Shown piece by piece: positions 19,243 through 25,743 of a stretch of 25,743 nucleotides of DNA. A model generated the notes under the pieces. It did not search any database. It was not told the origin of the DNA and worked only from the letters and a program-made list of their open reading frames with translations. A program made the position numbers and the translations under genes. Origin of the DNA: Chthoniobacterales bacterium (lineage in GTDB: Bacteria > Verrucomicrobiota > Verrucomicrobiia > Chthoniobacterales > JAFAMB01); the NCBI GenBank assembly GCA_051984705.1, contig JBPYFC010000264.1, positions 1 to 25,743 on the forward strand. Reading direction: 5' to 3'. Position 1 is the first letter of the stretch, and every line of letters begins with the position of its first letter.

Positions 19243-21716
19243 TGAATAATTTTACTCCACGTGCCCAACAGGTTTTGGCGCTCGCGCGCAAGGAGGCCGA
19301 CCGCTTCAATCATAATTATGTCGGGACAGAGCATCTTCTGCTGGGTCTGATCAAACTGGGACAAGGTGTCGCGGTCAATGTCCTCCAGAAAATGGGGCTC
19401 GATCTCGATACGGTGCGAATGGAAGTCGAAAAGCATGTGGGTTCGCATCCCGAGACCAAGATGGTTGGCAATATTCCTTACACGCCGCGGGTAAAAAAGG
19501 TCTTGGCACTGGCTGGTAAAGAAGCAAAAGCATTGAACCATTCTTACGTGGGAACCGAACATATTTTGTTGGGACTCTTGCGAGAAGGTGAAGGAGTAGC
19601 AGCCAGGGTATTAAAGAGTCTGGAAGTCGACATCGAACGAACGCGAAACGAAATCTTAAAAGAATTGGACCCGAATTTTACACCGCCGGAGAGCGAGGCT
19701 GAGGCCCCGCAGGAAGGCAACAAGAAAGATGTTAAGACGCCCGCTCTGCGCGCTTTCGGTCGCGATTTGACCGAGCTCGCGCGGAAGGACGAGTTGGATC
19801 CGGTTATCGGCCGTAAGGACGAGATAGAACGCGTGATTCAGATCCTCTGTCGACGTACCAAAAACAACCCGGTCCTTCTGGGGGAGGCGGGAGTCGGCAA
19901 AACAGCGATCGTGGAAGGACTCGCTCAGGAGATCGCTGCCGGTGATGTACCAGAATTACTCCGGGACAAGCGGGTGATTACGCTCGATCTGGCACTGATG
20001 GTTGCCGGAACGAAATATCGCGGCCAGTTCGAAGAACGCATCAAAGCGGTCATGGACGAGATTCGGCGTTCCAAGAATGTTATTCTCTTTATTGACGAGC
20101 TTCACACCATCGTGGGCGCAGGATCGGCTGAAGGAGCGATGGATGCCTCGAACATTATCAAACCGGCACTCAGCCGGGGCGAACTCCAATGCGTTGGGGC
20201 AACGACATTGAACGAGTACCGGAAGTACATCGAGAAGGATGCTGCGCTGGAGCGCAGGTTCCAGACGGTAAAGGTGGAAGCCCCGACCATCGAGGAGGCA
20301 GCGCAAATACTTCGAGGATTGCGTCCCAAATATGAAGCGCATCATAAGGCAAAACTGACCGACGAAGCTTTGGATGCCGCGGTAAGGCTCTCCGATCGTT
20401 ACCTAACCGGACGTTTTCTGCCCGATAAAGCGATCGATGTCATGGACGAGGCGGGCGCGCGTGCACGGATCAACGCCATGACTCGGCCGCCGGATGTCAA
20501 AGAAATCGAGAAAGAGATCGAGACAATTCGGAACGACAAAGAGGCGGCAATAAAGGCGCAAGATTTTGAGAAGGCTGCTGCACTGCGGGATTCGGAGAAG
20601 CAGGCGAAAGATAAGCTGGAGCGGATCCTGGATGAATGGCGCGAACGCCGCGAAGAACAGGAAGTCGTCGTTACTGCCGAAGATATCATGCACATCGTTT
20701 CGAAGTGGACCGGTGTGCCGCTCAATCGCATGGAAGAGAAAGAAGCTCAAAAGCTCCTGAAGATGGAGGACGAGCTCAAACAGCAAGTCATTGGTCAAGA
20801 TGAGGCGGTTGTCGCTATTAGCAAGGCTCTGCGACGGTCGCGTGCCGACCTGAAAGACCCACGGAGGCCGATCGGGTCATTCATTTTCCTCGGGCCAACC
20901 GGAGTCGGCAAGACGTTCCTCGCTCGTTCTCTAGCAGAATTCATGTTTGGCGACGCGGATGCGCTGATCCAGATCGACATGTCCGAGTACATGGAGAAGT
21001 TTACCGCCTCGCGTTTGATCGGCTCGCCACCGGGCTATGTCGGTTACGAAGAGGGTGGACAGCTTTCGGAAGCTGTGCGGCGGCGCCCATACTCGGTCGT
21101 GTTGTTCGACGAAGTAGAAAAGGCGCACCCGGATGTCATGCACCTGCTCTTGCAGATTCTGGAGGAAGGCAAGATCACAGACAGCCTTGGAAGAAAAATC
21201 GATTTCCGGAATACGATAATTATCATGACATCGAACGTTGGCGCTGAGCTGATCAAGCGCCAGACCTCGATGGGCTTTGGAGCGGTTGCCGGTCATGAAA
21301 CCTATGAGGCGATGCGGGAAAAGATCATGGAAGAGTCGAAACGTATTTTTAAACCGGAGTTCCTGAACCGGTTGGACGACATGATCGTATTCCACACGCT
21401 GGAGCGCGAAAGCTTGGCCAAGATTGTCGAACTTGAAGTCGCCAAAGTCGTTGAGCGGATCCGAGCCAAAGACATCAAGGTTCATCTTGATCCGAGCGCA
21501 GTAGAGTTTCTCATCGAGAAAGGATACGATCCGACCTACGGGGCGCGCCCAATGCGCCGGGCAGTCGAGAAGCATCTGGAAGACCCTCTGGCGGAGGAAT
21601 TGCTGCGTAGCAACGTCAAGCGGGGAGATACCCTGGATGTTATCGCGGTCGGCGAACACCTGACATTTAAGGCTCACCAGGCCGAGACCAGCGAGCCTGC
21701 CGCCGCGTCCAGCTAA
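19239..21716 (+). CDS. clpC: ATP-dependent Clp protease ATP-binding subunit ClpC
   Basis: Two Clp-N repeats with GTEH, NBD1 ([15 protein letters not shown]), a short coiled-coil M domain, NBD2 ([17 protein letters not shown]) and [11 protein letters not shown] overlap with mcsB. Confidence 0.98.
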
Positions 21717-21718
21717 GT

Positions 21719-21739
21719 CGCGGCACCTTCGGTGCCGCG
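21719..21739 (+). terminator. GC-rich hairpin right after the clpC stop (possible terminator or mRNA-stabilising stem)
   Basis: cgcggcacc-ttc-ggtgccgcg is a perfect 9-bp stem, but no U-tract follows (gttgtc). Confidence 0.5.
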
Positions 21740-21746
21740 GTTGTCA

Positions 21747-21774
21747 GTCGACGGTCGACCGTCTTCCGTCGACC
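21747..21774. repeat. Heptamer tandem array GTCGAC[C/G]
   Basis: gtcgacg gtcgacc gtcttcc gtcgacc, four in-register units. Confidence 0.65.
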
Positions 21775-21850
21775 GTTTGGTGGGCATTGAAGGCGCTTGG
21801 CGACGTGACTCTTTGTCAACCTTACCACCCCCACCCGCACCGCTCCATTC

Positions 21851-21879
21851 TTGAGATTCGTCCCGGCCAAGCGCACAAT
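21851..21879 (+). promoter_or_regulatory. Candidate sigma70 promoter for folP-cdaA-small ORF-glmM-bioD
   Basis: TTGAGA (5/6), exactly 17 nt, CACAAT (4/6, keeps -11A and -7T). The folP ATG follows after only 8 nt. Confidence 0.55.
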
Positions 21880-21887
21880 GGCTTAGG

Positions 21888-22736
21888 ATGCTTTGGAAAC
21901 TAAAGGATCGCACAATCGATCTTGGGAGATCAGGGATGGTTATGGGGGTGCTCAATACAACACCCGATTCGTTTTCCGATGGCGGAAAATACCTCAATCA
22001 AGACGCTGCGCTTCAACACGCTTCCGAAATGATCAGCGAGGGTGCCGCAATTCTGGATATCGGCGGTGAATCCTCACGACCAGGGGCAGATCCCGTGCCG
22101 GTCGAAGAAGAGATTCGTCGCGTCATTCCGACTCTACGAATAATACGATCCGCATTTCCAGAAATCATCCTTTCCGTCGATACAACGAAGTCAGCAACAG
22201 CCCGGGAAGCATTACTTGCCGGAGCCGACATCATTAACGATATCTCGGCTGCTACAGCAGATCCGGAGATGGCTGCCCTGCTCAAAGAATCGGGCGCCGG
22301 TATCATCCTCATGCATATGCAGGGGACGCCAAAAACGATGCAGATCAACCCGACATACTCCGATGTGGTTGCCGAGGTTTTCGAATTCCTTAAACAACGG
22401 ACTGAGGCATTAGTGGATCAAGGGATCGATCGCCAATGCGTTGCCATTGATCCGGGCTATTGCTTCGGGAAACTGCTTGCCCATAACATATCGCTGGCCC
22501 GCAATCTGAAGAAGTTCAAGGAGATCCGACGTCCAATAGTGGTGGGAGTCTCTAAGAAGAGCATGATCCCCCAGCTGTTAAGCCAGCCTCGGCTACCAAT
22601 GACAGACAGGATTTGGCCGACTGTTGCGTTTACCAGCATCCTGCGCGAGGAAGGAGCTCACGTCTTCCGAGTTCATGAAGTGAAACCAAACGTGGATGCT
22701 CTTCGGATGACGGAAGCAATCCTCTTCGATGAATAA
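21888..22736 (+). CDS. folP: Dihydropteroate synthase
   Basis: MGVLNTTPDSFSDGG, DIGGESSRPGA, SVDT, INDIS, LMHMQGTP, IDPG.CFGK, S.KS and RVHE. Several motif positions deviate from the usual consensus (see findings). Confidence 0.95.
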   Translation: MLWKLKDRTIDLGRSGMVMGVLNTTPDSFSDGGKYLNQDAALQHASEMISEGAAILDIGGESSRPGADPVPVEEEIRRVIPTLRIIRSAFPEIILSVDTTKSATAREALLAGADIINDISAATADPEMAALLKESGAGIILMHMQGTPKTMQINPTYSDVVAEVFEFLKQRTEALVDQGIDRQCVAIDPGYCFGKLLAHNISLARNLKKFKEIRRPIVVGVSKKSMIPQLLSQPRLPMTDRIWPTVAFTSILREEGAHVFRVHEVKPNVDALRMTEAILFDE

Positions 22737-23550
22737 TCCAGTCCTAGAATTCATCCAGAATAATTGGACCGCAGGGATTGAGATCGCGTTGTTGGCGGTC
22801 GCTATCTATTACGGCTACCTCTACTTCGGCGGCACACGCGGCGCCAAAGTGTTGACTGGGTTGGCGATTCTTTTCATTACCCTCACACTCATTTCGCAGA
22901 TCCTTAATCTGACAGTCATAGGCTGGCTTTTGCGCAGCCTCACCGCCTTCCTGGCGATTGCGCTGGTCATTATCTTCCAACCAGAGCTGCGACGCGCACT
23001 CGCTGAACTTGGTAGCAGCCATTTCTTTTCAACAGCCAGCCAAAAGAAAGAAACCATCGACGTCATTAGCGACGCCGTCTTCGAGCTGGCAAGCAACCAG
23101 ACAGGAGCCCTCATCGCAATCGAACGCGATACCGCAATTCGAAGCTTCGCAGAGAGCGGAGTAAATATTGATTGCGAAGTATCATCTGAACTTCTACTCA
23201 CGATTTTCTTCCCAAAAACGCCACTCCATGACGGAGGCGTGATTATTCGCAACGATCGAATCGTCGCAGCTGCTTGCATTTTTCCGGTCAGCCAGCGGGA
23301 AGATCTAGATCGTACAATGGGGCTGCGTCATCGGGCCGCGATTGGTATCACCGAGGAATCAGACGCAGTCGCCATAGTCGTATCAGAGGAAACCGGGAAC
23401 ATTTCGATCTGTTACCGAGGAAAGGTCGAACGCGGGTTAAAGCCAGGCCAATTCGAGAAGCGGTTGTCCGAGCTTTTGCTGCCCGAGGCTGAACATGCCG
23501 AAAATGAAGAAAATGAAACGTTGCACGAATCCGATACGACTCCACCGTAG
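22729..23550 (+). CDS. cdaA: Diadenylate cyclase CdaA/DacA (c-di-AMP synthase)
   Basis: Three N-terminal hydrophobic helices, IIFQPELRRAL, GALIAIER, IF.PKTPLHDGG (DGA-type motif), GLRHRAAIG (RHR motif) and IVVSEETG.IS. Confidence 0.96.
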   Translation: MNNPVLEFIQNNWTAGIEIALLAVAIYYGYLYFGGTRGAKVLTGLAILFITLTLISQILNLTVIGWLLRSLTAFLAIALVIIFQPELRRALAELGSSHFFSTASQKKETIDVISDAVFELASNQTGALIAIERDTAIRSFAESGVNIDCEVSSELLLTIFFPKTPLHDGGVIIRNDRIVAAACIFPVSQREDLDRTMGLRHRAAIGITEESDAVAIVVSEETGNISICYRGKVERGLKPGQFEKRLSELLLPEAEHAENEENETLHESDTTPP

Positions 23551-23567
23551 AGGCTAACGCCGAATCC

Positions 23568-23717
23568 ATGAAACGTCTTTTTCTAGAAAACTGGCGGGCA
23601 AAACTGATGGCCTTAATCGTGGCAACAGCGGTGTGGTATCTGATTAAACGAAATGTGGAAGTCAGCCCGGATCGGTGGCGGCTTGAACATCGGCCTGCAT
23701 TGACTCCAGGGGGCTAG
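23568..23717 (+). CDS. 49-aa single-pass membrane protein in the cdaR position (putative minimal CdaR/YbbR-anchor homolog); absent from the ORF track
   Basis: My translation: MKRLFLENWRAKLMALIVATAVWYLIKRNVEVSPDRWRLEHRPALTPGG*. ATG 17 nt after the cdaA stop and TAG 11 nt before the glmM start, so it fills the gap neatly. N-terminus resembles the CdaR pattern 'xxLxxNWxxKxxALxxAxxLW'. Confidence 0.75.
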   Translation: MKRLFLENWRAKLMALIVATAVWYLIKRNVEVSPDRWRLEHRPALTPGG

Positions 23718-23728
23718 GCTGATTTTGC

Positions 23729-25087
23729 GTGAGTAACCAAAGGCTTTTCGGCACAGACGGGGTCCGCGGTACCACGAACGTGGATCCGATTACAGTGCCA
23801 TCTGCCTTGCAGCTGATCCGCGCGGCGGTGGAAGTTCTCTGCGTCAAAGGGAGCCGCCCAAAGGCACTTGTCGGACGAGACACAAGAGCGTCCGGAGAGA
23901 TGTTGGAATCGGCCATTGCTGCAGGGCTGGCGTCCGCAGGAGTCGATATTGTTTTAGCGGGAACGGTGCCAACGCCGGCGATTGCCTACCTTACTGCAGC
24001 CCAGGAAGCCGCGTTTGGAGTAGTCATCTCAGCTTCGCACAACCCATTTGAAGATAATGGCATCAAGTTCTTTGGGCCGGATGGCTACAAGCTGAGCGAT
24101 GAGCAGGAGCAAGCCATAGAAGCTGCGTATTTCAGATCGAGCAATGCCATTCGCGATGTCGCTGCCAAGGACATCGGTCGGCTGTTCCATCTGCCTGATG
24201 CGGTCGAGCGATATGCGTCGCTCGCGATCGCTTCATTTCCAAGACCAGGATCACTGAAAGGATTAAAAATCGCTGTCGATACAGCAAACGGCGCGGCGTT
24301 TCAGACTACGCCTCTTGTCTTGTCGAATCTCGGAGCAACTCTTGAGCTGCGATCGGCAACGCCCGACGGATTCAATATCAATGCAGGATGCGGAAGCATG
24401 CACCCTGAATTGATCAGCCGTGTTGTATGCGAAACCGGGGCGAATGTCGGTATCGCTCACGATGGCGATGCTGATCGCGTCGTTTTCTGCGACGAGAAGG
24501 GCGAACCGCTGGACGGCGATGAACTTCTGGCAATCGCCGCTGTCGACCACCTCCGGCAAAATCGTCTGCGCAACAAGACATTGGTTGCAACAGTGATGAG
24601 CAACTTCGCTTTAGATGAGCTTCTGCAGAGCCATGGCGGTCGCGTGTTGCGCACCGCAGTAGGAGACCGACATGTCATCGACGCAATGGTCAAAAACCGG
24701 TTAAACCTCGGTGGCGAACAGAGTGGTCATCTCGTTTTTCGAGAGTTCGTGACGACCGGCGATGGTTTGATCAGCGCCCTGCAGATCCTGTCGATCATGG
24801 TTTCGACTGGAAAGCCGCTTAGCGAACTTCGCCTTCTTCTAAAGAAGTTTCCGCAAGTGCAGCGGAACTTGCATGTCCGGAGTAAACCCCCGATCGATCA
24901 GGTGCCGGGGCTTACGCAGGCAATTGGCATAGCCGAGAAAGCTTTAGCCGAGAAAGGACGTGTGTTGGTGCGCTATTCCGGCACCGAGCCACTCATCCGT
25001 TTGTTGCTGGAAGGTCCGGACCGAGTTCAGCTAGAGAAATTGGCAAATAACATTGCGCAGACAATTGAGGACCGTTTGAGCCCGTGA
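23729..25087 (+). CDS. glmM: Phosphoglucosamine mutase
   Basis: RLFGTDGVRG, VGRDTRASG, PTPAIAY, VISASHNPFEDNGIKFF (phospho-Ser loop), DGDADR, TVMSN, VGDR.V, GGEQSGH, GDG and RYSGTEP. GTG start. Confidence 0.97.
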   Translation: MSNQRLFGTDGVRGTTNVDPITVPSALQLIRAAVEVLCVKGSRPKALVGRDTRASGEMLESAIAAGLASAGVDIVLAGTVPTPAIAYLTAAQEAAFGVVISASHNPFEDNGIKFFGPDGYKLSDEQEQAIEAAYFRSSNAIRDVAAKDIGRLFHLPDAVERYASLAIASFPRPGSLKGLKIAVDTANGAAFQTTPLVLSNLGATLELRSATPDGFNINAGCGSMHPELISRVVCETGANVGIAHDGDADRVVFCDEKGEPLDGDELLAIAAVDHLRQNRLRNKTLVATVMSNFALDELLQSHGGRVLRTAVGDRHVIDAMVKNRLNLGGEQSGHLVFREFVTTGDGLISALQILSIMVSTGKPLSELRLLLKKFPQVQRNLHVRSKPPIDQVPGLTQAIGIAEKALAEKGRVLVRYSGTEPLIRLLLEGPDRVQLEKLANNIAQTIEDRLSP

Positions 25088-25716
25088 ACTATCTCGTCAC
25101 GGCGACAGATACTGGCGTCGGAAAAACGTTCGTTACCGTCGGGCTGATCAACGCTGCGCGTCTGGCTGGCATCGACTGTATCGGGATGAAACCAATCGCT
25201 GCGGGCGACAACAATGATACTCGCGCGATTATGGCCGCCCAACAGGGATGCGAACCAGAACATCTGGTTAGCCCGTTTTGGTACAGAACTCCAGTCGCGC
25301 CATACACAGCCGCAATGATTGAGAACCGGCCGGTCGATCTAACAGCAATTCGTAAAGCCTTTGAAGAGATTGCAAGCCGTCATCGCACTGTCTTGGTAGA
25401 GGGTGCAGGCGGCTTTCTGGTTCCTATTCTGGCAAGCTACGGTTTCAGGGATCTGGCCAAAGAGCTTGGCTTGTCCGTGATAGTAGTGGCCGCTAATCGA
25501 CTGGGCGTCATCAATCACACGCGACTGACCGTCGAATCGATCGGGAACGCAGGGCTCGAATGCTCCGCCGTAATTTTAAATCATCCGCCAGGGCCGGACG
25601 ATTTGTCGCAGCTGACAAACCAGAGCCTGTTGGAGCATCTATTGAAGATCCCAGTGTTGCGGGTCGAAAAGGATCAAAGCGATTTTTCGGAGTTGGTAGA
25701 GCAGCTGGCATTGTGA
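25084..25716 (+). CDS. bioD: Dethiobiotin synthase
   Basis: VTATDTGVGKT, GMKPIAAG, VLVEGAGGFLVP and LGVINHTRLT. GTGA overlap with the glmM stop. Confidence 0.93.
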   Translation: MNYLVTATDTGVGKTFVTVGLINAARLAGIDCIGMKPIAAGDNNDTRAIMAAQQGCEPEHLVSPFWYRTPVAPYTAAMIENRPVDLTAIRKAFEEIASRHRTVLVEGAGGFLVPILASYGFRDLAKELGLSVIVVAANRLGVINHTRLTVESIGNAGLECSAVILNHPPGPDDLSQLTNQSLLEHLLKIPVLRVEKDQSDFSELVEQLAL

Positions 25717-25743
25717 ATGGGCTCCGTCGAGCTTCCAGGTCGA

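Follow-up and report, generated by a model that had tools for sequence, protein, structure and literature searches.

The window analyzed here, a stretch of 25,743 nucleotides from a Chthoniobacterales bacterium, carries toward its end a run of closely spaced genes on the forward strand. The first is folP, which encodes dihydropteroate synthase (21888..22736; PF00809, 270.5 bits) and whose 3′ end overlaps the start of cdaA by 8 nt. cdaA (22729..23550) encodes a membrane-bound diadenylate cyclase of 273 aa, with a three-helix membrane domain (PF19293) at residues 17-86 and the DAC domain (PF02457) at residues 115-232. Both domains expected of a CdaA are thus present, and the protein scores 237.7 bits against TIGR00159, above the equivalog cut-off of 188.8. 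Farther downstream, glmM (23729..25087) begins with GTG and encodes a phosphoglucosamine mutase with all four PGM/PMM domains and a TIGR01455 score of 537.5 bits, again above the equivalog cut-off (447.55). Its stop codon is overlapped by 4 nt by a gene for a bioD-like ATP-binding protein (AAA_26; 25084..25716; PF13500, 127.3 bits). A sigma-70-like match upstream of folP (21851..21879, forward strand; TTGAGA-17-CACAAT, 9/12) is a possible operon promoter; it is the sole promoter match in 21500-25743, a count within chance expectation and hence weak evidence.

Between cdaA and glmM lies a small gene that we refer to as mini-cdaR (23568..23717, forward strand). It is an intact ORF of 49 codons running from ATG to TAG, with no in-frame start codon upstream. 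Only 17 nt separate the cdaA stop from its ATG and 11 nt separate its TAG from the GTG of glmM, so that, as the initial annotation had described, the ORF fills the gap between cdaA and glmM. That annotation also held that no remnant of a YbbR domain could follow the ORF, which is correct for this window because glmM starts too close by. We found no terminator-like site between cdaA, mini-cdaR, and glmM, and the three genes therefore appear to form one operon. A possible Shine-Dalgarno sequence, GAGG (23550..23553, forward strand), overlaps the cdaA stop 14 nt before the mini-cdaR ATG, a spacing longer than optimal that alone is no evidence of translation. At the other end of the gene, the last codons (Pro-Gly-Gly) contain GGGGG at 23709-23713, a possible ribosome-binding site for glmM, which may account for the genus-specific C-terminal ‘PGG’ of the peptide.

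The encoded peptide has three parts. Residues 1-12 (23568..23603) form a basic segment (K2, R3, R10, K12) that includes the conserved N8, W9, and K12 and is predicted to be cytoplasmic by homology to CdaR. Residues 13-26 (23604..23645) form a hydrophobic run of 14 residues with K12 and K27 on either side, in agreement with the single hydrophobic helix between basic residues reported initially; this putative helix core carries a conserved face, L16-A19-W23(-I26). Residues 27-49 (23646..23714) make up a basic, proline-rich tail that varies between families and would be periplasmic, again by homology. Since the hydrophobic run is only 14 residues long and both of its flanks are basic, we take the topology from homology alone.

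Scans of the 49-aa protein against Pfam and NCBIfam gave no matches even at lax thresholds, and PF07949, the YbbR domain, was not matched at E values up to 1 (Pfam) or up to 10 (NCBIfam). The ORF had been called hidden, a description that does not hold: gene callers at JGI/IMG, ENA, and Logan predict exactly this protein. Proteins of this type are labeled ‘hypothetical protein’ in public records. Some NCBI records name a 50-aa Akkermansia protein (the cluster of our locus L123:1501-1650) a ‘YbbR domain-containing protein’, yet it is too short to hold such a domain.

How widely is this small gene conserved? A tblastn search with the 49-aa query found a match in 35/40 related genomes (E 1e-6 to 1e-29), including 23/24 from its own family, and the matches extend to most of the order’s other families. 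At every locus fetched, the relatives’ gene lies between cdaA and glmM and encodes 46-63 aa. Among genome contigs, 345 loci encode mini-cdaR, and the carriers are Chthoniobacterales, Candidatus Udaeobacter, and Spartobacteria MAGs, from soil. We then searched a phylum sample of 300 genomes with a profile built from 26 of the mini proteins (A1). Within the class Verrucomicrobiae, the matches were ORFs of 44-75 aa directly after cdaA, and the cdaA-glmM slot holds a 50-aa form in Akkermansia and a 44-aa form in Methylacidiphilum. A 50-aa anchor-only form also occurs outside the Chthoniobacterales, Akkermansia, and Methylacidiphilum groups (L198:1724-1873, genome G363, family f76). One further match (genome G043, L153) is sited away from cdaA, and we took it to be due to chance.

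Some members of the family are arranged differently from the one in the window. In several Chthoniobacterales families, the small gene begins, in a different frame, about 100 nt before cdaA ends; for example, the mini gene at L024:1501-1647 overlaps cdaA at L024:738-1610, and L027 and L028 are alike. Library-wide, 350 clusters at 50% identity match the mini profile at E ≤ 1e-3. The sole long match among the best 150 of these 350 (P0127, 323 aa) joins a mini start to part of GlmM through an out-of-frame Arg/Pro-rich stretch; a frameshift in the assembly is the probable cause, rather than a real fusion of the mini protein with GlmM.

The gene is under strong purifying selection. In a codon analysis of 81 distinct mini-cdaR sequences, synonymous sites were saturated (pS 0.6-1.0), pN was 0.06-0.24, and variability at the three codon positions was 0.19, 0.07, and 0.38. 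No stops or frameshifts were found in the relatives’ genes. The conserved short ORF that the initial annotation had proposed to look for in the cdaA-glmM gap of relatives is therefore present in most of them, with a dN/dS of 0.04-0.18 where measurable. Transcription finds modest support in a 436-nt contig from a soil metatranscriptome, which comes from a relative about 95% identical and reaches from the 3′ end of cdaA across the whole mini ORF into the start of glmM; DNA may contaminate RNA libraries, and the contig does not bear on translation. Compared with the ORF in the window, its frame is intact, and five of the eight differences are synonymous. The other three change amino acids, all conservatively and all in the tail (residues 27-49).

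These data also bear on whether the ORF could be a recently truncated and decaying cdaR, an ORF arisen by chance, or a conserved element that works as RNA or in regulation. In favor of such readings, the ORF is short, lacks a family match, and has suboptimal Shine-Dalgarno spacing. However, saturated synonymous sites, low pN, and variation concentrated in third positions exclude a chance ORF, a decaying remnant, and an element that acts purely at the RNA level. The ORF moreover belongs to an equal length class across the order and in other orders, and its relatives are free of stops and frameshifts. We found no YbbR match anywhere in the window’s own genome, which is 61% complete, or in eight genomes from the order with a completeness of 98-100%. 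Recent truncation, which had been offered initially as the alternative to a minimal regulator, is rejected because the short form is common to the whole order, Akkermansia, and Methylacidiphilum, and no decay was seen. The domain-less gene is an old state, and we give this whole group of explanations next to no weight. With its intact frame, conserved position, and selection on the protein, we regard mini-cdaR as a real gene with near certainty.

What is the origin of this protein? When the mini profile was run on other classes, its top match genome-wide was, in more than 20 genomes, the N-terminus of a protein of 304-356 aa encoded right after cdaA (E 4e-6 to 1e-3 per genome). All ten of these proteins that we scanned carry PF07949 (45-92 bits), and some are named ‘CdaR family protein [Kiritimatiellae]’ or ‘YbbR-like domain-containing protein [Lentisphaerae]’ by their sources. 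Proteins found in this way were selected by the mini profile itself. For a non-circular test, we ranked the phylum sample by YbbR score and kept the top 30 loci, which without exception adjoin cdaA. The mini HMM alone gave weak matches to these unselected CdaRs (E 3e-5 to 0.02 for 9/30), so a profile-profile comparison was needed. The target comprised the first 65 residues of the 21/30 CdaRs with cleanly called ORFs, picked only by YbbR score. Aligned to it with hhalign, the mini alignment matched over 30 columns with a probability of 94.8, an E value of 5.3e-8, and a score of 40.6. The reversed target scored 13.0, and 29 column shuffles reached at most 13.3. Composition alone can raise the score between two membrane helices; 30 shuffles that kept the hydrophobic block in place scored at most 24.2, which argues against that here. 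The likeness of the N-terminus to CdaR that was noted initially is thus borne out on 21 CdaR N-termini, all from the same phylum.

The mini protein has the N-terminal single membrane anchor with the conserved motif of the CdaR family, and its gene stands directly after cdaA and before glmM. It lacks the defining feature of the family, at least one YbbR domain. With the domain missing but the anchor motif and gene order present, mini-cdaR is best described as a CdaR ortholog and not as a member of PF07949. By this comparison of profiles and gene order, it is very probably the ortholog of the CdaR anchor.

The competing explanation is that an unrelated small membrane protein took the slot between cdaA and glmM, and that its likeness to CdaR reflects convergence or helix composition. 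The lack of any Pfam or NCBIfam match and the weak HMM-only scores against unselected CdaRs would fit such an origin. So would the library search, in which no full-length CdaR appeared among the best 150 of the 350 matches; these were nearly all of 36-146 aa, and ten longer ones that we scanned had no family match. For this reason, the case for homology rests on the profile-profile comparison, synteny, and intermediates. A search with the full-length CdaR alignment returned only proteins of Kiritimatiellia, Lentisphaeria, and Verrucomicrobia and no Bacillota CdaR. Against convergence stand the margin of the hhalign score over the block-preserving shuffles, the fact that the top genome-wide matches to the mini profile are N-termini of CdaRs beside cdaA, the conservation of K12, L16, A19, and W23 in mini, one-, two-, and three-domain forms, and the occurrence of one- and two-domain intermediates in the same slot. 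We therefore consider an unrelated origin highly improbable.

The intermediates trace how a CdaR could become so short. In Kiritimatiellia and Lentisphaeria, the slot after cdaA holds the CdaR of 304-356 aa, with three YbbR domains. A broader profile (A2), run against 150 genomes sampled across the class, revealed shorter forms in the cdaA-glmM slot of other Verrucomicrobiae families. Two-domain forms consist of the anchor and two YbbR domains (217-231 aa; 66-73 bits), and one-domain forms consist of the anchor and a single YbbR domain (130-158 aa) whose scores of 19-30 bits straddle the Pfam cut-off of 22.3. Three, two, one, and no YbbR domains in one conserved slot constitute a reduction series, and mini-cdaR is its end point. 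The orthologous slot, the profile match, this series, and purifying selection together uphold the initial proposal that the lineage keeps only the transmembrane module of CdaR.

A first tree of CdaA suggested several origins of the domain-less state, a result we rejected because ORFs had been miscalled in four rows and the tree contained some very long branches. Once eight rows affected by either problem had been taken out, a branch with an SH-aLRT support of 93 had all 51 domain-less rows on one side. On this tree, a single loss of the domains within the class Verrucomicrobiae is possible. In another class, which otherwise has three-domain CdaR, one genus (genome G245) encodes a 55-aa anchor-only form after cdaA (L143:2694-2858), and its genome gave no YbbR match, so a separate, independent loss is likely there.

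The distribution of the gene follows the type of cyclase. A DAC domain is present in 146/151 genomes of the class, and these domains are of differing kinds. Families f17, f18, f19, f21, f23, and f71 encode, instead of CdaA, a soluble 452-aa cyclase composed of PTS_EIIA_2, DacZ_P, and DAC (for example, L207:1226-2581 in genome G092). The mini profile had no match in families with this DacZ-like cyclase (f18, 0/11; f19, 0/7; f71, 0/6). In genomes that appear in both our DAC and mini tables, the mini match lies about 60-400 bases downstream of the DAC match on the same strand. The absence of the small gene where the cyclase is soluble indicates that it travels with membrane-bound CdaA and not with c-di-AMP synthesis generally.

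Two other features of these cyclases deserve mention. The diadenylate cyclase fused to EIIA suggests that signaling of the PTS(Ntr) type is tied to c-di-AMP. In other Verrucomicrobiae families, CdaA is 477-537 aa long (L211:1419-2849, reverse strand, P0174; L209:1677-3287, reverse strand, P0175) and continues past the DAC domain with one more membrane helix, its fourth, and an outer, beta-rich region of 200-260 aa. The protein resembles a fusion of CdaA and CdaR, but its C-terminal extension gave no match to YbbR (Pfam), the mini profile, or the CdaR N-terminal profile.

What could a CdaR without YbbR domains do? The effect of CdaR on CdaA differs between the species studied, and both activation and inhibition have been reported. 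A joint alignment of 28 minis, 19 intermediates, and 21 full-length CdaR N-termini shows which residues the family has kept in all three groups: K12 (99%), A19 (96%), W23 (79%), L16 (75%), L13 (75%), and N8 (65%). W9 is kept in 96% of the minis, and P34 and W37 in the tail are conserved only inside the mini family. Conservation follows a helical period, with a moment of 2.08 compared with 0.82 on average after permutation; 0.24% of permutations reach the observed value. Given their 12-16-19-23 spacing, the conserved residues share one face of the helix with a small residue at its center, and K12-L16-A19-W23 looks like a surface for helix-helix packing.

CdaR binds and modulates CdaA (PMC10117814, PMC10636490). 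In published work, its YbbR domains are directed to the outside, and in B. subtilis the outer portion of the protein is said to sense the wall (PMC10117814; PMC10636490; bioRxiv 10.64898/2026.09.06.749708). In Chlamydia, c-di-AMP output needs a balance of DacA and YbbR (PMC12422730). In the mechanism we propose, the folP-cdaA-minicdaR-glmM operon would produce a 49-aa single-pass inner-membrane protein with a basic cytoplasmic N-terminus, a helix, and a tail of about 22 residues that takes the place of the YbbR sensor domains. The conserved face of the helix may pack against the three-helix membrane domain of CdaA and thereby stabilize or tune the cyclase. The protein would then act as a constitutive subunit or a membrane sensor rather than as a cell-wall sensor. 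We lean toward an action of mini-cdaR on CdaA through this conserved face. A complex prediction for CdaA and the mini protein, made with separate alignments and without control runs, scored 0.01 against a mark of 0.32, which speaks neither for nor against binding.

A true remnant of CdaR might also have been kept for another role, namely the membrane insertion or stability of CdaA, its localization, or translational coupling between cdaA and glmM. The gaps of 17 nt and 11 nt, the G-rich possible ribosome-binding site for glmM in the last codons of the ORF, and the overlap with the 3′ end of cdaA in several relatives are all in keeping with coupling or stability, and work in Chlamydia suggests that membrane DacA without YbbR is harmful (PMC12422730). 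However, pure coupling would not preserve the amino acids of one helix face phylum-wide. Stabilization of CdaA, for its part, is hard to separate from regulation and overlaps with the explanation we prefer. A separate role of this kind therefore seems to us unlikely, although it is the most credible of the alternatives. We place the probability that mini-cdaR is a domain-less CdaR ortholog working on CdaA as proposed at about 0.75.

Why keep a helix when everything else has been removed? Strong selection has maintained the helix throughout an order of bacteria abundant in soil, and likewise in Akkermansia and Methylacidiphilum; its retention after the loss of all sensor domains suggests that CdaR acts on the synthase through this part. 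A more speculative extension, which we hold tentatively and at less than even odds, is that the membrane helix is the effector module of every CdaR and is by itself enough to bind CdaA and set its activity. If so, the YbbR domains would be separable sensory modules, lost in several lineages, and a CdaR reduced to its helix might couple c-di-AMP to the tension, thickness, or lipid state of the membrane, or be an obligatory subunit of the cyclase. mini-cdaR thus offers a minimal system for asking whether the helix alone binds and tunes CdaA, with K12, L16, A19, and W23 as the residues of interest. Carriers such as Akkermansia and Methylacidiphilum can be grown, and the series of three, two, one, and no domains allows comparative experiments. 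There is also a consequence for annotation, in that such genes are labeled ‘hypothetical protein’, wrongly labeled ‘YbbR domain-containing protein’, or missed through length cut-offs.

Full-text literature searches turned up no description of a CdaR without YbbR domains. New in this analysis are the series of domain losses, the profile comparison with shuffle controls, the helix face conserved across all forms, and the co-occurrence with CdaA and not with the DacZ-like cyclase. Among known small membrane proteins, MgrB (47 aa), which acts on PhoQ, is likewise a one-helix peptide of about 50 aa working on a larger membrane signaling enzyme (PMC8404706). The likeness to mini-cdaR lies in a possible shared mechanism; the two are not homologous. 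MgrB acts largely via its periplasmic part, and its gene lies outside the operon of its target, unlike mini-cdaR.

The CdaR proteins of Bacillota (B. subtilis, L. monocytogenes, S. aureus, and S. pneumoniae) resemble mini-cdaR in being encoded with cdaA and glmM and in having a single N-terminal membrane helix, and they are known partners and modulators of CdaA (PMC10117814, PMC10636490, bioRxiv 10.64898/2026.09.06.749708). They differ in carrying four YbbR domains outside the cytoplasm and a disordered region with a reported role in peptidoglycan sensing. The mini-cdaR protein lacks all of these, its chain stopping about 22 residues beyond the helix; its sequence likeness was measured on CdaRs of its own phylum. 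Closer in lineage is the DacA-YbbR pair of Chlamydia trachomatis, which belongs to the same GTDB phylum and likewise joins a cyclase to a single-pass partner, in a two-gene operon (PMC12422730). The chlamydial YbbR is of full length, unlike mini-cdaR, and linkage to glmM has not been shown for it. The CdaRs of Kiritimatiellia and Lentisphaeria, from the same GTDB phylum too, share with mini-cdaR both the slot and the motif N-x-x-x-K-L-x-x-L-x-L-A-x-x-x-W and differ from it in their three YbbR domains. The one- and two-domain CdaRs of other Verrucomicrobiae families (L187-L206) share the slot and the anchor motif of mini-cdaR and have kept one or two of the YbbR domains that it has lost.
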